Shown: piece by piece, positions 6,643 through 20,505 of the stretch | Layout: the number at the start of each line of letters is the position of its first letter | How positions within the stretch are numbered: position 1 is the stretch's first letter | From: Candidatus Omnitrophota bacterium | GTDB lineage: Bacteria; Omnitrophota; Gorgyraeia; Gygaellales; Profunditerraquicolaceae | DNA: 64,000 bases | Assembly (NCBI GenBank): GCA_041663665.1 | Contig: JBAYMG010000001.1 | Location: 1,482-65,481 of the forward strand | Direction of reading: 5' to 3' | The notes under the pieces: generated by a model | What the model was told of the DNA's origin: nothing | Databases searched by the model: none | Seen by the model: the letters and a program-made list of their open reading frames with translations, nothing else | Program-made: the position numbers and the translations under genes

Positions 6643-6647
6643 AAATC

Positions 6648-6695
6648 GGGGACGCTCCTATTTAATTTCAACCGTAAATAAATAGGAGCGTCCCG
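6648..6695. repeat. Perfect palindromic element, copy 1: GGGACGCTCCTATTT(A)-16-nt loop-AAATAGGAGCGTCCC. Sits just after the rpsA stop and may act as a terminator-like hairpin.
   Basis: A 15/15 inverted-repeat stem at 6649-6663 pairs with 6680-6694. The same arms recur at 11409-11450 and as half-sites at 13485-13559. Confidence 0.7.
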
Positions 6696-6715
6696 GATTT
6701 ACTACTTAGGCTATT

Positions 6716-7885
6716 ATGAATATTGATGAGCAATTAGGCATTATCAAGCGCGGAGTTGTTGAGATAATCTCTGAAGAAGAGCTTCGTAAGAAGCTCGAAA
6801 AGAGCATTGCCTCCGGGCGCCCCTTAAAAATAAAAGCCGGTTTTGACCCGACTGCTCCGGATCTGCATTTAGGCCATACTGTACTTTTGCGTAAACTGCG
6901 ACAATTCCAGGATCTGGGCCATGAAGTTTATTTCTTGATTGGTGATTTTACCGCTCAGATTGGCGATCCTACCGGACGCTCTGAAATTCGCAAGCAGCTG
7001 ACCAAGCAGGAAGTAGCCAAAAACGCCCAGACCTATAAAAAACAAGTGGCTAAAATTCTGGACGTCCGCAAACTAAAAATAGTTTTTAACAGTAATTGGT
7101 TTGAGAAAATGTCCGGAGTCCAGATGCTGGGCCTTACAACGCATGCTTCAGTTTCTCAGATGCTTACCCGGGATGATTTTAAAAAACGTTACACAGGGGG
7201 AGAAAATATTTCTATTTTAGAGTTTGTTTATCCGTTGATGCAGGGATATGATTCAGTGAAATTAGAAGCAGATGTCGAAATTGGAGGTACTGACCAGATC
7301 TTTAATTTATTAGTCGGCAGGCAATTCCAAAAAGACTATAATCAAGCTCAGCAGGTAGTTTTGACTATGCCATTATTAGAAGGTACTGATGGTATCCAGA
7401 AGATGAGCAAGTCTTATGGTAATTATATAGGAATTAGCGAATCAGCAAAAGAAATGTTTGGTAAAGTTATGTCGATTTCTGATGAGTTAATGCTTAAATA
7501 TTATGAGTTGCTTACTGATGAGGATTTAGGAAAAGTTAAAGCAATGCATCCTAAAGAGGCAAAAGTAAATTTAGCTAAAATTATTATTACGCAATATCAT
7601 TCAGCTTTAGATGCGCAAAAAGAAGCTGATGAATTTACGCGGGTTTTTACTCAAAAAGAAGTTCCTCAGGATATGCCTAAGTTTAAAACCGACGGCAAAA
7701 AAAATATTCTACTTATCTTAACTGAGAGCAAGTTAGTGGCAAGCGGCAATGAAGCTCGTCGGTTGATTAGACAAGGCGCAGTGAGTTTTAATGATCGAAA
7801 AATAGAAAAAGATGATTTTGTCCCCAATGAGCCTGGCATCCTTAAGGCCGGTTCACGCAGGTTCCTGAAAATTGCACTCTCGTAG
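6716..7885 (+). CDS. tyrS: tyrosyl-tRNA synthetase
   Basis: HIGH motif (DLHLGHTV), KMSKS motif (KMSKSYGN) and a C-terminal S4-like domain. Confidence 0.9.
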
Positions 7886-8004
7886 ACAGTTTACGTAACC
7901 CCATATTTCCCATCCATATCTGTAAGAAATGTTTCCCATCTAAAATAAATACGGTTAGATTTTTCTCTCCTTTACGTCAATTATAGTAGGAGGAGGGGAA
8001 GGCT

Positions 8005-8691
8005 ATGCCATCATATGCGCGTAAGCATCAACTGCAACAGTCGTTATTGTATCATGCCTTTAGCCGAAGCAATGGACGCAGGGTGATTTTTCAAGAACCA
8101 GGGGATTTTGATCATTTTAAGAAATTAATCGGAGAGTATAATGATAAATTTAATTCAAAAATATATCATTGGGCAATTATGCCGAATCACTACCATCTTG
8201 TAATTGAGCTTGAATGCCCGGAATTAATTTCGAAATTTATGGCAGGATTGCATAGGGCGTATAGCCATTATTACCATAATCAATATAACGCGGTGGGTTT
8301 TTTATGGCAAGGCAGGTTCAAATTGCAGCCGATACAAAAAGAATTATATTTGAAGAGTTGTGGAAGATATGTCGAGAGAAATCCGGTGCGTGCGGGAATA
8401 GCTGCGGAAGCTTTTGAATATGCATATAGCAGCGCGCGATTTTATTGTTTAGGTCAAGAGGATGGCATAACGCGAGTCAGTCCTGATTTTGATGATTTTG
8501 GGAAAGAGGCTACTGGGCGGCAGGTGGCTTATAAGAAATTTCTTAGAGATTTTAACAGTAAAGAAGATGCTTTTTTCTCGAATATAGAGGCTCCTTGTGG
8601 TGATCCGGATTTTATACGGAAGTTGGTGAAAATAGGAAAACATTATTTCCCCAGGAGGAAAGGCCGGAAAGCCAGAATATTTGTTTTGTAA
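8005..8691 (+). CDS. IS200-like Y1 (HUH) transposase, possibly RAYT-like given the 228-aa length
   Basis: HUH motif (MPNHYHLVIE) and conserved downstream Tyr region. A strong ribosome-binding site (GGAGGAGGGGAAGG) precedes the ATG. Confidence 0.7.
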   Translation: MPSYARKHQLQQSLLYHAFSRSNGRRVIFQEPGDFDHFKKLIGEYNDKFNSKIYHWAIMPNHYHLVIELECPELISKFMAGLHRAYSHYYHNQYNAVGFLWQGRFKLQPIQKELYLKSCGRYVERNPVRAGIAAEAFEYAYSSARFYCLGQEDGITRVSPDFDDFGKEATGRQVAYKKFLRDFNSKEDAFFSNIEAPCGDPDFIRKLVKIGKHYFPRRKGRKARIFVL

Positions 8692-8733
8692 CTACCTATC
8701 ATTAATAGGATTGCGTAAACTGTCTATACTATA
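8672..8733 (+). repeat. ~60-bp IS-end-like repeat, copy A (right end of the transposase element)
   Basis: GCCAGAATATTTGTTTTGTAACTACC...ATTGCGTAAACTGTCTATACT. Its 5' box encodes the last transposase residues (ARIFVL*). Confidence 0.6.
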
Positions 8734-8771: not shown

Positions 8772-9083
8772 ATGAGGGATATGTTATATTCTAATCGGAA
8801 CGACAAAATTCATGGAAGCTTTATCTGGGATATTAAGCGTGAGCTAGCAAATATATATAAGCATGGAGTAGGTTTTGCTATTGCTACAGAAGCGTTTAAA
8901 GATCCCAGGAGAAAGATTTATATTGATTCAAAACACAGCTTAGATGAAGAGCGGCTATTTTGTATTGGTAAAGTGGCAAAAAAGATTGTGACTGTAAGAT
9001 TCACTTATAGGGATGGTAAAATAAAGATTTTTGGAGCTGGATATTGGAGGAAAGGAAAGGCCTATTATGAAAAAGAAGATTAG
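8772..9083 (+). CDS. brnT: BrnT-like ribonuclease toxin (DUF497)
   Basis: 103 aa carrying the DUF497 signature FIWDxxKxxxNxxKHGVGFxxAxEAFKD. Its partner gene overlaps the 3' end. Confidence 0.65.
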   Translation: MRDMLYSNRNDKIHGSFIWDIKRELANIYKHGVGFAIATEAFKDPRRKIYIDSKHSLDEERLFCIGKVAKKIVTVRFTYRDGKIKIFGAGYWRKGKAYYEKED

Positions 9084-9306
9084 AGATTCAGAGATGCCTA
9101 TTGGTGGGCTCGCGAGGATTAAAGATTTTCTTCCTTCTCCGGAGGAATTGGTAAATACCGAGAAGACAGTTAAAGTTACTATATCACTTAAAAAAAAGAG
9201 CGTTGATTTTTTTAAACACAAGGCAGGGCAATATCATACAAAATATCAAAAAATGATACGCGAGCTTTTGGACAAATATGCAATGCAATATTCTCAGATT
9301 TCTTGA
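9067..9306 (+). CDS. brnA: BrnA-like antitoxin
   Basis: 79 aa with the KDFLPSPEEL...TVKVTISL...DFFKHKAG...GYQT-like pattern of BrnA-family antitoxins. The gene overlaps the brnT stop. Confidence 0.6.
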   Translation: MKKKIRDSEMPIGGLARIKDFLPSPEELVNTEKTVKVTISLKKKSVDFFKHKAGQYHTKYQKMIRELLDKYAMQYSQIS

Positions 9307-9330: not shown

Positions 9331-9392
9331 GCCACAATATTTGTTTTGTAACTATCTAAGCTCCATAAAATTACGTATACTGTCTACAGTAT
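9331..9392 (+). repeat. ~60-bp IS-end-like repeat, solo copy B, upstream of the SemiSWEET gene and followed by an extended -10 (TGTGATATAAT at 9393-9403)
   Basis: GCCACAATATTTGTTTTGTAACTATC...ATTACGTATACTGTCTACAG. The first 25 nt match copy A at 23/25. Confidence 0.6.
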
Positions 9393-9672: not shown

Positions 9673-10539
9673 ATGAAAGGAATTATCCTTGCAGGTGGTA
9701 AAGCTACGCGGCTTTATCCGATAACTAAAGGCGTCTGCAAACAGATGCTGCCGATTTATGATAAGCCGATGATTTATTATCCTTTGTCGGTTTTAATGCT
9801 GGCGGGAATTAAAGATATTCTGGTTATCTCAACTTCAAAAGATGTTCCAAGGTTTAAGGATTTACTGGGTGATGGTGCAAGCATAGGGATTAAGCTTTCA
9901 TATGCGATTCAGCCTGAGCCCAAAGGGATAGCTCAGAGTTTTATTATCGCTGAGGATTTTATCGGCAAAGACAGTGTCAGTCTTATTTTGGGGGACAATA
10001 TTTTTTACGGTTTTAATTTAAGCGAGCTACTACAACGTTGCGCTAAACTCAAAAACGGAGCAGCGATCTTTGGTTATTATGTAAAAGATCCTCACCGGTA
10101 TGGTGTGTTAGCATTTGATAAAAAGTGTAAAGTAACTTCAATTGAAGAAAAGCCTTTGAAACCAAAATCTAATTGGGTGGCTTCCGGGTTATATTTTTAC
10201 GATAACAATGTGGTTAAAATTGCTAAAAATATTAAGCCTTCTAAACGAGGGGAGCTTGAAATTACGGGTGTGAATAATGAATATATTAAAAAAGGTAAAC
10301 TTCACGCAGAGTTTCTTGGCCGCGGGTATGCCTGGCTTGATACCGGTACTTATGAGTCGTTGATTGACGCTTCAATCTTTATTAAGACAATTGAGGCGCG
10401 GCAAGGGCTAAAGATTGGTTGTATTGAAGAAGTGGCTTATCGTATGGGGTATATTAATAGCAAACAATTGCTTAAGCTAGCTTCTGCTATACCGACTAGT
10501 TATGGCGAATATTTAAAGGATTTGCTTAAAAATGAATAA
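9673..10539 (+). CDS. rmlA: glucose-1-phosphate thymidylyltransferase
   Basis: [44 protein letters not shown] is near-canonical for RmlA. Confidence 0.9.
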
Positions 10540-11353
10540 AAATATCTTAATTCTGGGGAAAGGTTTTATTGGCCAGCGCCTGCAAAAAGAGTTTGGCTGT
10601 AAAATAGACGGCTCCTTGATAAATTGTTTTACGGACGCCTGGAAACTGGTTAAAAAATATAACCCTAAAATAATTATTAATTGCATCGGTACGACCGGTA
10701 AAAACAATGTTGACGGATGTGAACTGGAAAAGGATGCAACCTTGTTAGCGAACAGTTTTATTCCGGTCATATTAGCTGAGGCGGCCCTGCGCAATGATAT
10801 TAAGTTGGTACATATTTCAAGTGGTTGTATTTTTAATTTTGATTATAAAAAAGATAAACCGATTGAAGAATCCGGCCAGGATTATTTTTTTAAGTTGTTT
10901 TATAGCCGGAGCAAGATTTATTCTGAAAGAGCGCTTGAAGTATTGGCAAGAGACTATAATATTTTAATCGCCAGGATTAGAATTCCTTTGCTTAATGCCA
11001 AGCATCCTAAAAATGTCCTGGATAAACTTCTTAAATATAAAAAGGTTATTGATTTGCCTAATTCTGTAACCTATATTCCTGATTTCATCCAGGCAATCAA
11101 GCATTTGATAAAAATTGACGCCCGCGGAATTTATAACGTGGTCAATAGGGGCGGTTTGCGTTATCCTGAACTTATGAATATCTATCAGAAGTATGTTCCG
11201 GAATTTAAATATAAAGTTATTGATTTGGCCGAGATTGGTTTAGAGAGGACTAATTTGCTTTTGTCGACCAGTAAACTTGAGAAATCTGGTTTTAAAGTCA
11301 GGAATATTAACTCGGTGCTTGAAGAATGCGTAAAAGAATACCTAAAATCCTAG
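10532..11353 (+). CDS. rmlD: dTDP-4-dehydrorhamnose reductase (SDR fold)
   Basis: 273-aa Rossmann protein ([13 protein letters not shown]) sitting between rmlA and rmlB, with a C-terminal substrate-binding half like RmlD. Confidence 0.65.
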
Positions 11354-12348
11354 TCACCGGGGGCGCAGGTTTTATCGGCAGTGCTTTTCTTCGCCAGCTA
11401 ATAAATCCGGGACGCTCCTATTTGTTTTCTAAAACAAATAGGAGCGTCCCCGTTTTAATTGATTGCCTTACATATGCAGGGGATCTTAAGCGCCTTGAAG
11501 AAGTAAAAGGCAAATTTAAATTCTATAAAACCGATATCTGCGATAAGAAGAAAATCGAATCAATTTTTGCCAAAGAGAAGCCAGATATTGTAGTTCACTT
11601 TGCCGCTGAAAGCCATGTTGACCGCAGCATTAATGATGCCACGCCGTTTATTGAAACTAATATTAAGGGGACGCAAATTCTTATTGATGCCAGCCGTAAA
11701 TATCATGTAAATAGATTTATTTATATTTCTACTGATGAGGTTTACGGGGAAATAGCTAATGGTAAATTTAATGAAAATTCTCCGATAAGGCCTAACAGCC
11801 CTTACGCAGCTTCTAAAGCCTCAGCCGATCTTTTGGTCCAGTCATATATTCGTACTTATCAATTTCCGGCAATAATTATCCGGCCGTCGAATAATTATGG
11901 GCCTTGGCAGTATCCTGAAAAATTAATTCCATTAGCTATTCTTAAAATATTAAGCGGTGAGAAAGTTCCGGTTTATGGTAAAGGTCTAAACGTGCGCGAA
12001 TGGCTTTATGTTGATGATTGCGTACAGGGTATCATGGCGATTATGCACAAGGGTAAAATCGGAGAGACGTATAATTTAGGCAGCGCTTGCGAGAGTAAAA
12101 ATATTGATACAATAAAATTACTGTTAAAAACTCTGGAAGCCGGACAGGATAGATTTGAGTTTGTTAAGGATCGTTTAGGCCACGATATAAGATATAGCCT
12201 TAACTTTAAAAAAACTACCAGGGATCTTGGCTGGAAGCCGAATATTAAGCTTGCGCAAGGCCTAAAGCTTACCGTAGATTGGTCGCTTAAGCATCAGGAT
12301 TGGCTTAAGAGTAAATTGGGTGAGATAAATAAACTTTATATAAAGTAG
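11326..12348 (+). CDS. rmlB: dTDP-glucose 4,6-dehydratase carrying an in-frame palindromic insertion
   Basis: TGGAGFIGS...DCLTYAG...HFAAESHVDRS...YAASKASADLL are canonical RmlB motifs. An extra ~15 aa (PGRSYLFSKTNRSVP) is encoded by the palindrome at 11409-11450. Confidence 0.9.
   Translation: MRKRIPKILVTGGAGFIGSAFLRQLINPGRSYLFSKTNRSVPVLIDCLTYAGDLKRLEEVKGKFKFYKTDICDKKKIESIFAKEKPDIVVHFAAESHVDRSINDATPFIETNIKGTQILIDASRKYHVNRFIYISTDEVYGEIANGKFNENSPIRPNSPYAASKASADLLVQSYIRTYQFPAIIIRPSNNYGPWQYPEKLIPLAILKILSGEKVPVYGKGLNVREWLYVDDCVQGIMAIMHKGKIGETYNLGSACESKNIDTIKLLLKTLEAGQDRFEFVKDRLGHDIRYSLNFKKTTRDLGWKPNIKLAQGLKLTVDWSLKHQDWLKSKLGEINKLYIK
11409..11450. repeat. Palindromic element copy 2 (GGGACGCTCCTATTTG-loop-CAAATAGGAGCGTCCC), located inside the rmlB reading frame without breaking it
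   Basis: 16-nt perfect arms with a 10-nt loop. The arms are identical to the copy after rpsA. Confidence 0.75.
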
Positions 12349-12364
12349 CGCGTTTTTTGGTTTA

Positions 12365-12420
12365 CTATATTTCTTCTGTAATTATTAGTTATTAAAAGGG
12401 TTACGTACACTGTCTACACT
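12365..12420 (+). repeat. ~60-bp IS-end-like repeat, solo copy D, ending 9 nt before the 12429 start codon
   Basis: ATTTCTTCTGTAATTATTAG...GGGTTACGTACACTGTCTACACT. Confidence 0.55.
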
Positions 12421-12428
12421 ACAAACAT

Positions 12429-13478
12429 ATGGCGATTGTGATTGTTACAGGTTCTTGCGGATTGGTTGGTTCAGAAACAGTTAGTTTCTTCGCGCAAAAA
12501 GGGTTTGATATCGTCGGTATTGATAACAATATGCGCCAAAGTTTTTTCGGCGCAGACGGCTCAACCTTTTGGAATCAAAAACGCCTTCAGAAACTGTACA
12601 AGAATTATCATCATTATTCCGTAGATATCCGCAATCAAAGTAAAATAAATTCCATATTTAAAAAATATAACAAAGACATAGCTTTGGTGGTGCATGCTGC
12701 TGCTCAGCCGTCTCATGATTGGGCGGCCAAAGACCCAGTAGTTGATTTTACCGTTAATGCCCAGGGTACATTAATTATGCTGGAAGCTTTTCGCCAATTT
12801 TGTCCTCAAGCCGTTTTTATTTTTACTTCAACCAATAAAGTTTACGGTGATACTCCTAATCGACTGCCGCTAGTTGAACAAGAAAAACGTTTTGAGATTT
12901 CTCCAGATCATCAATATGGTAAGGGTATAGACGAAGCAATGAGTATTGATCATTCTTTGCATTCAGTTTTTGGCGCTTCCAAGGCTGCTGCAGATATTAT
13001 GACTCAGGAATACGGAAAGTATTTTCATCTGCGTACCGGGATTTTCCGCGGCGGCTGTTTAACCGGGCCGGCGCATTCCGGAGCTGAGCTGCATGGATTT
13101 TTATCTTATTTTATCAAATGCGTGATTACCGGGCGCAAATATGTAATTTACGGCTATAAAGGCAAGCAGGTGCGCGACAATATTCATTCTTATGATTTGG
13201 TTAATGCCTTTTATCATTTTTTTAAATCACCGCGTTGCGGCGAAGTTTACAACATAGGCGGCGGCAGATTTGCTAATATTTCTATTTTAGAAGCAATTGA
13301 ACTTTGCCAGAAAATAACCGGCAAGAAACTAAATTTTGAATATATTGAAAGAAATCGCATTGGCGATCATATTTGGTGGATTTCAGATGTTTCTAAATTC
13401 AGGTCCCATTATCCTGATTGGAATTACAAATTTGGCATAGAGGAGACAATTAAACAGATATTTGATGCACAAGCATAA
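12429..13478 (+). CDS. NAD-dependent CDP-sugar epimerase (CDP-paratose/tyvelose 2-epimerase family, RfbE-like)
   Basis: Extended SDR protein whose motifs [11 protein letters not shown], DNxxRxxFFGxDG, [10 protein letters not shown] and [12 protein letters not shown] match the paratose-epimerase family. Confidence 0.6.
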
Positions 13479-13484
13479 TTTATA

Positions 13485-13559
13485 AATAGGAGCGTCCCCA
13501 GATTATAATTGCGCGGTGGGGATAATTGGAAGGTTACAGAAATAAATAGAAACGTCCCC
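13485..13559. repeat. Two degenerate right-arm half-copies of the palindromic element (AAATAGGAGCGTCCCC and AAATAGAAACGTCCCC)
   Basis: Direct sequence match to the right arm of the 6648 and 11409 copies. No left arms are present. Confidence 0.5.
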
Positions 13560-13574: not shown

Positions 13575-14428
13575 ATGAAAAATAAAATTCTTGAAATAAC
13601 GTCCAGGGGTGAAATTGTCATCTATAGGGCTAAAAACAAAAAATACAGCTTGAGGTTAAACTGGAGCATGAGACTGTTTGGCTAACCCAAAAACAAATGG
13701 CTGATTTGTTTACTAAGAACATCCGAACAGTTAACGAACATATACAGAACGTATTTAAAGAAGTGGAGTTAAAGAAAAGTTCAGTTATCCGGAATTTCCG
13801 GATAACTGCCGCTGATGGTAAAAGTTATGAAACCAATTTTTATAATCTTGATGTAGTAATTTCGGTAGGTTATCGTATCAAATCTCAGAATGGCACTCGG
13901 TTTCGTATTTGGGCAACAAATGTTCTTAAACAGCATCTAATTGATGGATATACATTAAATGAGAAACGCCTAAAAGAACAAGCTCAAAAACTTCAGGCCT
14001 TACAGCGAGCAGTGAAGTTAATTAGCAGTATGAAAGATCGCAAGCAACTTGAATATAAAGAAGCTATGGGGTTGCTTGAAGTTATCAGCGACTACAATTA
14101 CGCGCTTGGATTGTTGGATGATTATGATTATAAGCGGCTCAAAATAAGCCAAATCTCTAAAAAGGAAAGGTTTATCTTAAGCTACAAGTTTGCAATAGAA
14201 GCCGTTAATAAGCTTAAAGAAAGAATTAGTAGTTCAAATCTTTTTGGTGTAGAGCGCGATAAATCATTTAAAAGTTCTGTATCCTCAATTTATCAAACAT
14301 TTGACGCAAAGGAATTATACCCAAGCATTGAAGAAAAAGCGGCGAATCTCCTTTATTTTATTTCAAAAATCATTCATTCGTTGATGGCAATAAGCGAATT
14401 GCAGCCTCGATATTTATATGGTTTTTAG
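13575..14428 (+). pseudogene. rhuM: RhuM-family (virulence/DNA-binding) gene with a frameshift in its N-terminal region; the intact ORF begins at 13697
   Basis: The ORF from 13697 carries the RhuM N-domain (ETVWLTQKQMADLF...IRNFRITAADGKSYETNFYNLDVVISVGYRIKSQNGTRFRIWATNVL). The expected first ~25 aa (MKNKILEITSRGEIVIYRAKNKK) lie in another frame, and the switch is at the A-rich tract at 13632-13643. Confidence 0.5.
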
Positions 14429-14629: not shown

Positions 14630-14688
14630 GTAGTATTTCTTTTGTAACTGTTTAGATTCAATTAGGTTGCGTACACTGTCTATTAAGC
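14630..14688 (+). repeat. ~60-bp IS-end-like repeat, solo copy C, ending 2 nt before the ATG at 14691
   Basis: ATTTCTTTTGTAACTG...GGTTGCGTACACTGTCTATTA. Confidence 0.55.
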
Positions 14689-19537: not shown

Positions 19538-20505
19538 AGCGAGCGATTATTGTTGGCGTTGGTGGTCAAGATGGTCAATTACTTTATGAGTTGTTAACGA
19601 AGAACCGGTATTTGGTGATAGGAATTGATAAAAATAAAATTCAATCTTCTTTCAAAGTTTTATTTAAGCAAGTTAATATTTTGAATTTTATTGATGTCGC
19701 GAATCTTATTAAGAAATTTCAGCCTCAGGAGGTTTATTATTTAGCGGCTTTTCATCATTCAGCAGAAGATTTACCAATTGAAAATGCTGAACTTTTGCAA
19801 CGTAGTTATAATGTCCATGTTGTTGGACTTGTGAATTTTTTAGAAGCCATAAAAAAATTCTCTCTAAAATCGCGGATTTTTTATGCAGCTTCATCACATA
19901 TTTTTGGTGAGACAAAAAATGATATTCAGGATGAAGATACGCCGATTAATCCTAACGGTCTGTATGGCATTACTAAGGCGACTGGGCTAGCTCTTTGTAG
20001 ATTTTATCGCTCTAATTATGATATTTTTGTTTCGGTAGGCATACTTTATAATCATGAATCTGCTTTTCGGACTGGAAATTTTGTTTCTATGAAAATCATT
20101 CAAGGAGCGATTAATATCAAAAAAGGGAAACAAAAGCAACTATTTCTTGGGGATTTGGATGCGGTAATTGACTGGGGGTATGCTCTGGATTATGTTCGGG
20201 CGATGCATCTTACGCTAAAAAGCAGGAAGCCCGATGATTTTATTATTGCTACAGGTAAGCGACATACAGTTTTGGATTTTATTAAAGTAGTTTTTAAAAC
20301 ACTTCAATTGGACTGGAAGTTATATATTAAAGAGGATGGCTCTATTGTGCGTAAACAGAGTTTTTATCGTATTGGTAATTCTGCTAAATTAAGAACTAGC
20401 ACTGGGTGGGGGCCCGAATTTAGTTTTAAAGAAATGATAAATAGGATGATAGAAATGAATTTGGAAAAGTTTTCGCTTAATTCAAAGAACAAAATTAAAA
20501 GGTGA
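19534..20505 (+). CDS. Gmd-paralogous SDR, probable GDP-4-keto-6-deoxyhexose reductase (Rmd/Gts-like)
   Basis: Carries GQDG and a Gmd-like C-terminal half (ILYNHESAFRTGNFVSMKII...LGDLDAVIDWGYALDYV) but lacks a dehydratase-type N-terminus. Confidence 0.5.
   Translation: MKRAIIVGVGGQDGQLLYELLTKNRYLVIGIDKNKIQSSFKVLFKQVNILNFIDVANLIKKFQPQEVYYLAAFHHSAEDLPIENAELLQRSYNVHVVGLVNFLEAIKKFSLKSRIFYAASSHIFGETKNDIQDEDTPINPNGLYGITKATGLALCRFYRSNYDIFVSVGILYNHESAFRTGNFVSMKIIQGAINIKKGKQKQLFLGDLDAVIDWGYALDYVRAMHLTLKSRKPDDFIIATGKRHTVLDFIKVVFKTLQLDWKLYIKEDGSIVRKQSFYRIGNSAKLRTSTGWGPEFSFKEMINRMIEMNLEKFSLNSKNKIKR

Follow-up and report, generated by a model that had tools for sequence, protein, structure and literature searches.

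The stretch of DNA analysed here, the window, comprises 64,000 nucleotides (nt) of a contig from Candidatus Omnitrophota bacterium (JBAYMG010000001.1, assembly GCA_041663665.1), and our subject is a palindromic element that lies in frame within its rmlB gene, which codes for dTDP-glucose 4,6-dehydratase, RmlB. Judging from its translation, the open reading frame (ORF) at 11326-12348 is a bona fide gene for this enzyme: it scores 413 bits against the NCBIfam equivalog model TIGR01181 (cut-off 365), matches the solved RmlB structures 6bi4 (E = 1e-90) and 1bxk (E = 1e-86), retains the invariant residues T136/D137/E138, Y160 and K164, and its product shares 100 % identity with MFA6357054.1. Between the GxxGxxG helix and strand beta2 (the VLID strand) the gene contains the 42 nt GGGACGCTCCTATTTGTTTT-CT-AAAACAAATAGGAGCGTCCC, at 11409-11450, which are translated in frame as ..NPGRSYLFSKTNRSVP... 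A preliminary description of this region had recognized the in-frame palindrome and given it 16-nt arms around a 10-nt loop; both observations hold, and the loop proves to be self-complementary, so that the perfect palindrome is in fact of the 20+2+20 type. The unit conserved in the family described below extends about 7 nt beyond this core, to approximately 11402-11457.

At the protein level the insert adds 10 residues to the shortest orthologues (330 amino acids, aa) and leaves a gap of 8 residues against 6bi4 and 1bxk. In the AlphaFold model residues 27-40 form a coil of low confidence (predicted local distance difference test, pLDDT, about 53) between helix 16-26 and strand 41-46. Coil and gap bear out the earlier suggestion that the insert sits in a tolerated surface loop, one that borders the Rossmann fold, lies apart from the catalytic motifs and is predicted to be lengthened by it.

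The element is not alone in the window, where the 15-nt core of its arm, with at most 3 mismatches, was matched 7 times against 0.36 expected, a number that none of 100 shuffled sequences reached. A hairpin previously noticed right after rpsA (6649-6694) is indeed built from the same 15-nt core arms, beginning 6 nt past the stop codon; it is missing from most orthologous rpsA-tyrS junctions, the two genes abutting in L232, L235 and L239 (numbers prefixed with L denote loci outside the window). As for the half-sites reported downstream of the epimerase gene, family arms are present there, but they are ordinary single units of the family and not just degenerate copies.

The rmlB loop in related genes

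We compared the 119 closest RmlB proteins, 73-85 % identical to that of the window, and read the DNA of nine genes (Table 1). The loop between helix alpha1 and strand beta2 has 6-7 residues in 16 of the 119 (KKGISP, for example) and is extended, to 8-35 residues, in the other 103; a second insertion, between the KRL and FYKTD segments, is found in 11-12 of the 119. The insertion is therefore not private to the lineage of the window, as had been supposed, since L229 and L239 carry a full copy at the same site, L230 half of one and L231 a decayed one. Nor do relatives encode the segment in ordinary DNA, which would have marked it as an ancestral loop: their extra segments are palindromic too.

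The details of these copies are telling. Between the window and L229 the arms are identical at 30 positions out of 30, to be compared with 79.6 % identity over the whole gene and 63 % at the third positions of conserved codons, while the spacer and one outer pair differ, the window copy there matching the subfamily of its own genome. L239 differs from L229 at four positions of an arm, each of which is mirrored in the opposite arm, with 0 unpaired changes. Either the rmlB site has been hit more than once, or copies have been homogenized within genomes; a neighbour-joining tree of the 119 proteins, variable loops removed, is star-like and does not decide between one insertion and many.

The identity of the element, moreover, resides in the DNA, the peptide varying with the reading frame of the host gene. 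The right arm has a TAG in one frame, so that only two frames are open. In rmlB the family reads GRSYLF..NRSVP; it is translated in other frames as RDVSIFSKKNRNVP (RDVSIF..KNRNVP) in a gene for a glycosyltransferase of family 2 (GT2) in L146, and as GDVSIFSGKIETSP (GDVSIF..KIETSP) in the gene of a DUF2341 protein in L176, both hosts having been verified with Pfam.

Table 1. Elements and genes in the window and states of the rmlB loop in related loci.
Sequence	Feature	Position	Strand	Description
Window	rmlB, dTDP-glucose 4,6-dehydratase, 340 aa	11326-12348	+	intact, all family-invariant residues present
Window	palindrome core, 42-nt element	11409-11450		perfect, 20-nt arms and 2-nt centre; in frame in rmlB; encodes GRSYLFSKTNRSVP
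Window	extended imperfect palindrome	11393-11466		36-nt arms, 83 %
Window	intergenic copy of the same element	6643-6700		16-nt spacer separating the core arms at 6649-6663 and 6680-6694; located between rpsA stop (6642) and tyrS start (6716)
Window	single right arm AAATAGGAGCGTCCC	13484-13498	+	exact; 6 nt past the stop of the epimerase gene 12429-13478
Window	single right arm AAATAGAAACGTCCC	13544-13558	+	2 mismatches; equals the majority family variant GTTTC
Window	RAYT-like Y1 (HUH) transposase gene, different clade	8005-8691	+	inverted repeat GTAGACAGTTTACGTAAC at 7882-7899 (-) and 8710-8727 (+)
L234	rmlB loop			empty
L229	rmlB loop			syntenic with the window; canonical 63-nt element AATAAATGGGGACGCTCCTATTTTTCC-GGAATCAAGCCT-GGGAAAAATAGGAGCGTCCCCATT; same codons as window
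L239	rmlB loop			length and flank as in L229, spacer nearly so; arms GGGACCGTTTCTATTT / AAATAGAAACGGTCCC
L231	rmlB loop			decayed copy
L230	rmlB loop			right arm only; gene of minimal length (330 aa)
L233	rmlB loop			perfect 16+2+16 palindrome, related type
L232	rmlB loop			GGGACTGTCCCCGAAGGGGACTGTCCC (GLSPKGTVP) at both rmlB sites, again in a GT2 gene
L235	rmlB loop			75-nt nested palindrome

Several other features of the loop deserve mention in their own right. A second palindromic family, GGGACTGTCCCC-GAA-GGGGACTGTCCC, encodes GLSPKGTVP; in L232 it occupies 10081-10108, 10177-10204 and 20178-20205, and its peptide is found in the RmlB loop of 34 of the 119 orthologues, at the second RmlB site in 11, and in the GT2 gene. 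The loop of P0055 (KGTVSEL) looks like a half unit of this family. Other peptides recur in the loop (SVIARREAPKQS, ..GILAMTKQ.., RDGSQLKAELSPKKGHFSFGLRTVP and GDCRRGGLNLPYGS, in P0043, P0057, P0084, P0089, P0054 and P0075), and their sequences suggest that still more repeat families have settled there. The empty allele (..GGCATATCTCCTATT..) resembles the left arm, a likeness noted post hoc and possibly due to chance.

A dispersed repeat family and the transposase genes between its arms

Metagenome contigs were scanned for GGGACGYTYCTATTT, followed after 2-30 nt by AAATAGRARCGTCCC. At least 118 contigs contain this hairpin, with 124 elements among the matches listed, on which the following figures for variants, placement and pairing are based. 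Ninety-three elements have the GTTTC variant of the arm and 28 the GCTTC variant; the CTCC variant of the window is found in 2 of the 124. Complementarity continues beyond the core for some 7 nt (97, 81, 77, 86, 80, 77 and 64 % at successive positions) before becoming random, and for 2-3 nt on the inner side; the flanking pairs covary, TA/AT at offset 2 and AT/GC at offset 7. The flanks are A-rich on the 5' side and T-rich on the 3' side. The spacers between the 15-nt cores are variable (2-30 nt), yet particular ones turn up again on other contigs, as the copying of elements would lead one to expect. The carrier contigs (L111-L228) range from 35 to 70 % G+C, with a median of 58 %, and the AT-rich arm is kept throughout. 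The bare 15-nt arm gave, among the matches listed in genome contigs, single chance matches in unrelated phyla.

Most copies are intergenic and close to the 3' ends of genes: 107 of the 124 lie outside, and 17 within, a stretch free of stop codons for at least 40 codons on both sides, several of the latter being spurious ORFs of G+C-rich contigs, and at low-GC loci a long ORF has its stop codon within 60 nt of 57 % of the elements, compared with 22 % of random positions outside ORFs. An arm may even provide the TAG stop of the upstream gene, as it does for rmlB in L229 and L230. Single arms (about 25) are found beside pairs (about 139); over some 85 kb, the window and L236 together have 3 hairpins and 4 single arms. 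As to orientation relative to genes, the arms of the window, L229 and L230 are all on the sense strand. The unit has no GTAG motif, CGTC being present 2-3 nt inside its outer end. The element may be described as two units joined head to head, each with a conserved core of 15 nt that grows to about 24 nt when the less conserved flanks are counted; it resembles either a REPIN, that is, an inverted pair of repetitive extragenic palindromes (REPs), or a dimer of terminal inverted repeats (TIRs).

The window contains a gene for a transposase of the Y1 type (8005-8691, Pfam Y1_Tnp), akin to those tyrosine transposases that are associated with REPs (RAYTs): its best NCBIfam model is REP_Tyr_transpos, with 59.7 bits, below the cut-off of 80. 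We considered it as the mobilizer of the rmlB element and rejected it. Its flanks, conserved in four syntenic genomes, carry GTAGAC(A/T)GT(C/T)TACGTAAC, unlike the rmlB element, and because these conserved flanks hold a different inverted repeat it is not the cognate enzyme. A search with its sequence in the Protein Data Bank gave no match.

A better candidate came from a tblastn search with the same protein against 814 kb of loci that had been chosen only for the hairpin motif. Six loci were found, with 32-35 % identity (L122, L147, L149, L177, L180 and L193; L122 and L193 are apparently the same sequence in opposite orientation), far more than a single-copy gene in each genome would yield. 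In L180, L177 and L193 family arms stand on both sides of the transposase gene, often overlapping its stop codon; in L149 there is an arm downstream, the contig ending on the upstream side. The gene of L147 is flanked by another repeat, GGGGTCAGAATTATTTT, as is a second gene in L237, with which it forms a third clade; each transposase clade thus has arms of its own.

Three further loci, L236, L237 and L238, were picked by protein identity alone on long contigs, and are unbiased regarding the motif. All three have a left arm some 50-90 nt before the ATG, present as truncated copies in L238, and a right arm at or just past the stop codon; about 53-57 nt separate the end of the left arm from the ATG in L236 and L237, the truncated copies of L238 being further upstream. 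The arms of L236, GGGACGCTCCTATTT, with the outer flank AAATCG/CGATTT, are exactly the variant of the rpsA and rmlB copies of the window, and the outer flank AAATCC/CGTTTT of the rmlB copy derives from this subfamily. The L236 transposase, MFA6358239.1, has an accession 1185 numbers past that of RmlB, MFA6357054.1, and accession numbers track gene order in the window; because of this proximity and of the identical arms, L236 is probably another contig of the same metagenome-assembled genome (MAG).

The arm-flanked clade has 1903 members (E <= 1e-10), nearly all of those that are named being from Omnitrophota. The HUH and WQxR motifs and the catalytic tyrosine are conserved, and the best NCBIfam model is again REP_Tyr_transpos (NF047646). 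The proteins have 223-228 aa, with a Y1 domain that ends near residue 130-140 and hence a C-terminal extension. Their arms begin with GGGGACGY, agreeing at 7 of 8 positions with GGGGWSAS; those of the third clade, GGGGTCAG, agree at 8 of 8.

Some side observations concern these transposase genes. Many of those of the arm-flanked clade (clade 2) lie on contigs of about 1 kb, as if the flanking repeats broke assemblies. All three clades share a leader, GTTAGATT..CGTC.ATT..GGAGG, just before the ATG (window 7953-8007; L229, L232, L235, L236, L237, L238 and L147). In the window this leader has a predicted fold of -21.9 kcal/mol (z = -2.6), in which a CU-rich stretch pairs with the Shine-Dalgarno sequence, in a manner reminiscent of the translational control of IS200.

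Origin and upkeep of the rmlB copy

Repeats of this general kind are already known. GTAG- and CGTC-tagged REPs were described by Di Nocera et al. (2013; PMC3733652), together with intragenic, in-frame REPs, single or dimeric, which encode 20-30 residues and sometimes occupy the same site in related species, with REP ends that provide TAG stop codons, and with 'TIRtrons', RAYT-like genes flanked by inverted repeats with GGGGWSAS, the repeats of which also form families of singles and dimers. CGTC repeats, including the short RPE-4 and RPE-6 of Rickettsia (RPE, Rickettsia palindromic element), 'apparently lack a dedicated transposase', according to the same work. Most TIR-associated transposases (TIRYTs) belong to subclass 2.1 of TnpA_REP (Quentin et al., 2018; PMC6006769). 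The present system resembles TIRtrons and TIRYTs in many respects: a Y1/HUH transposase of about 225 aa with an extension past the Y1 domain, a gene set between inverted arms, themselves no stem-loops, which keep a roughly constant distance to the ATG, a 7 out of 8 match of GGGGACGY to GGGGWSAS, and arms found elsewhere as singles, dimers and clusters. It differs by its phylum, Omnitrophota, and its arm sequence, both new, and by its abundant dimers, which also lie inside genes.

With the REP/REPIN-RAYT systems (Nunvar, 2010, PMC2817692; Bertels and Rainey, 2011, PMC3116915) it shares the inverted pair of short units with a variable spacer, forming a long hairpin, the presence of singlets, a mostly extragenic location near the 3' ends of genes, a transposase gene flanked by units, and genome-specific arm variants. 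In contrast to theirs, the unit here is not a palindromic stem-loop and has no 5' GTAG, but CGTC 2-3 nt from the outer end; the transposases fall under the NCBIfam cut-off for RAYTs; and the copy studied is intragenic. Like intragenic REPs, the rmlB copy is in frame in a conserved gene, at a tolerated place, and absent from some orthologues. In-frame insertions of RPE (Ogata, 2000) are the subject of passages in a review (PMC10969869). By description, RPE and intragenic REPs have in common with our family in-frame palindromic repeats in conserved enzyme genes, adding 10-30 residues in tolerated places, some genes hit twice, different repeats at one site in related species, and TAG stops from repeat ends. 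RPE-1, however, has about 100-150 bp, and RPE/CGTC repeats have no known dedicated transposase, whereas a Y1 clade is flanked here; the repeats are hosted by Omnitrophota of free-living or predatory habit instead of Rickettsia, and the CGTC tetranucleotide is the only shared point of sequence noted.

All in all, the element fits the TIR-dimer or REPIN-like kind that goes with a transposase of TIRYT/RAYT type, with RPE-like in-frame copies, although its unit, unlike that of the classical REP, is no stem-loop with a 5' GTAG. In-frame REP insertions and repeat-flanked transposase genes have already been described; the novelty lies in the family itself, the phylum, the unusually rich series of states in one enzyme loop, a remarkably clear hot spot, and the association of CGTC-containing palindromes with a flanked transposase. 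Among the papers searched we found none that links Omnitrophota with such repeats.

With good though not complete confidence we understand the rmlB palindrome as one non-autonomous member of a repeat family dispersed in Omnitrophota; the unit of this family also serves a clade of RAYT/TIRYT-type Y1 (HUH) transposase genes as their terminal inverted repeat. This agrees with the preliminary description, which had seen in it an element akin to REPs or to miniature inverted-repeat transposable elements that had landed in coding sequence: the family is dispersed and multi-copy, it flanks a Y1 transposase clade, and it is present or absent at orthologous sites. Its copies would be mobilized by the transposase of the flanked clade, spreading, or having once spread, in trans, probably as single-stranded hairpins, as in REP/IS200-type systems. 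One of them would have entered the alpha1-beta2 loop of rmlB in a common ancestor of the window and at least the L229 and L239 lineages, or else have been re-inserted or converted there. It would survive because its length is a multiple of three, its frame is free of stop codons and it merely lengthens a surface loop, so that in the protein it would be a passenger. The arms stay perfectly complementary and agree with the other copies of the genome, which would point to homogenization, or to selection that favours the hairpin and not the peptide. Intergenic copies, placed preferentially just past stop codons, look like bidirectional terminators.

A number of facts weigh against this scenario. 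No transposition event is defined: aligning the empty, half and full alleles yields no definable target-site duplication, cleavage site or exact boundary, no direct duplication is seen in the flanks of elements or at the empty, half and full rmlB sites, the element being effectively all inverted repeat, and the net lengthening of the gene, by 30 nt in the window and 42 nt in L229, falls short of the palindrome, so that simple cutting and insertion into the 'empty' allele leaves the boundaries unexplained. The region of a single arm has no significant fold (z = -0.09); in contrast to classical REPs, one unit does not form a stem-loop of its own. All RAYT matches to NF047646, at 54-65 bits, are below the NCBI cut-off of 80; the transposase of the window belongs to another clade, with other flanking repeats, and the presence of a cognate gene in the same genome rests solely on accession proximity and identical arms. 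Finally, the structure model of RmlB is of moderate confidence only (mean pLDDT 74.7).

Another reading is that no whole hairpin was ever inserted, and that the palindrome arose in place: a single unit in the loop, as in L230 (KNRSVP, with the length of the empty allele), would have been doubled in inverted orientation during replication, through template switching or fold-back synthesis. The rmlB gene of L230 is of minimal length (330 aa) and contains the right arm alone, and the protein tree places L230 next to L229; the net gain is below the size of the palindrome, complementarity takes in locus-specific flanks, and the centre differs between the window and L229. Yet the single unit would itself have to come from the dispersed family; loops and flanks are repeated identically at different loci and on different contigs, which is what the copying of whole hairpins would produce; in its outer flank the window copy agrees with the subfamily found around the L236 transposase gene; and a 42-nt deletion with AA microhomology explains L230 equally well. 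We hold an origin in place to be improbable. Scarcely credible is the idea that the palindrome was produced by a chimeric or fold-back join in the MAG: assemblers can produce or collapse palindromes, and the exact short-centre version is found in this one contig only, but independent assemblies from other samples (L229, L239 and L231) carry a family element at the same codon position, the reading frame and 300 downstream codons are intact, and other copies of the window share the same arms. That the extra peptide is an adaptive feature, selected at the amino-acid level as a new interaction surface of RmlB for example, is also very hard to believe; the extension is in frame in the 103 extended orthologues and some types, such as GLSPKGTVP, are widespread, but the peptides, of 8-35 residues, are unrelated between lineages, other genes translate the same DNA in different frames, the arms are frozen even at synonymous positions, a signal at the DNA level, and the model predicts a disordered coil.

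The hairpin might itself be selected, as a regulatory structure of RNA or DNA. The 74 nt at 11393-11466 are predicted to fold at -34.3 kcal/mol (z = -8.3) as RNA, 66 nt around the rpsA copy at -34.0 kcal/mol (z = -8.6), and the members of the family that were folded at -34 to -54 kcal/mol; 11409-11450 is picked out on both strands by a scan for terminators, the tail being CGTTTTAATT, in a region where the count of flags equals that of shuffled sequences (8 against 7.7). Terminator-like dispersed repeats occur elsewhere as well, among them the paired uptake sequences of Neisseria. The SPRITE repeat of pneumococcus is another (PMC10969869). Our family resembles both by the G+C-rich base of its stem, its A-rich 5' and T-rich 3' flanks and its position just past stops; it differs by a long stem (20-25 bp) with an AT-rich upper part and by its tie to a transposase, the likeness to terminators being one of sequence pattern. 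An attenuator, terminator or translational brake about 85 nt into rmlB could tune the rhamnose operon, its repeat origin being incidental or co-opted, and the mirrored changes that keep perfect pairing within coding DNA, as well as the enrichment of intergenic members at gene 3' ends, speak for it. We nevertheless give it little credit, as 16 of the 119 orthologues do without the extension and others have unrelated palindromes, half units or decayed copies there, no Rfam family matches (only generic hairpins of the miRNA-precursor type, below threshold), hairpin-templated repair or conversion from other copies could equally keep pairing, and transcription-coupled translation normally masks an intragenic terminator. 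A sequestering of the Shine-Dalgarno sequence by the arm (AGGAG / CTCCT) was dropped, the majority variant AGAAAC having no such sequence; that the hairpin modulates the translation of rmlB in its messenger RNA, as had been offered as an alternative, is possible but unsupported.

A stronger form of the transposase-borne origin, which we regard as rather unlikely though worth stating, would have it that the rmlB palindromes are not inert relics: their arms would follow the current variant of the genome while spacer and flank follow the locus, by an ongoing in-frame homogenization, transposase-dependent or hairpin-templated, and several repeat families that go with Y1 transposases would land by preference in this loop. 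Were this true, these would be the first CGTC-type, RPE-like intragenic palindromes tied to a dedicated transposase.

Whatever their upkeep, in-frame palindromic repeats are a rare natural experiment on the tolerance of proteins to random peptides and on the persistence of selfish DNA in essential genes, and here many stages (empty, half unit, full, nested, decayed, second site) are displayed in one well-understood enzyme of an uncultured phylum. The tie of the family to a Y1 transposase clade makes it a tractable system for the study of RAYT/TIRYT-mediated spread and of hairpin maintenance in coding DNA. The repeats also explain a class of odd low-complexity loop peptides of Omnitrophota proteins (GLSPKGTVP, GRSYF..NRSVP), which could mislead annotation and alignment.

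Further repeats and genes of the window

Repeat units tend to cluster side by side, as witnessed in L229 and L238. The rpsA-tyrS spacer of L229 (1195-1310) has a nested or tandem arrangement with a partial left arm, a full hairpin and an extra right arm, and in L238 three truncated left arms stand in tandem upstream of the RAYT gene. The rmlB stop codon TAG of L229 (7026-7050) and L230 (1767-1790) belongs to a single right arm, AATAAATAGGAGCGTCCCC, where the window (12336-12360) has a degenerate remnant, ATAAAGTAGCGCGTTTTTT.

The order tyrS, RAYT, PQ-loop gene is conserved in the window, L229, L232 and L235, the RAYT gene being absent from this place in L234, L239 and the P0006 contig. Its flanking repeat, GTAGACAGTTTACGTAAC, is a GTAG-containing motif with further copies on the + strand at 9370-9387, 12400-12417 and 14666-14683; copies lie 12-45 nt before start codons, one of them ending 12 nt ahead of the ATG at 12429. 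Between the RAYT and PQ-loop genes a BrnT-type toxin ORF (8772-9083, Pfam BrnT_toxin) overlaps a small ORF, probably that of the antitoxin (9031-9306); the pair (8772-9306), inserted at this place, is found in L229 and not in L232 or L235.

An unrelated palindrome lies further downstream: a perfect 13+1+13 one, CAGTTATCCGGAA-A-TTCCGGATAACTG, at 13782-13808 inside a RhuM-family ORF (13697-14428). Its sequence is unrelated to that of the GGGAC family, and on the minus strand it was scored as terminator-like.

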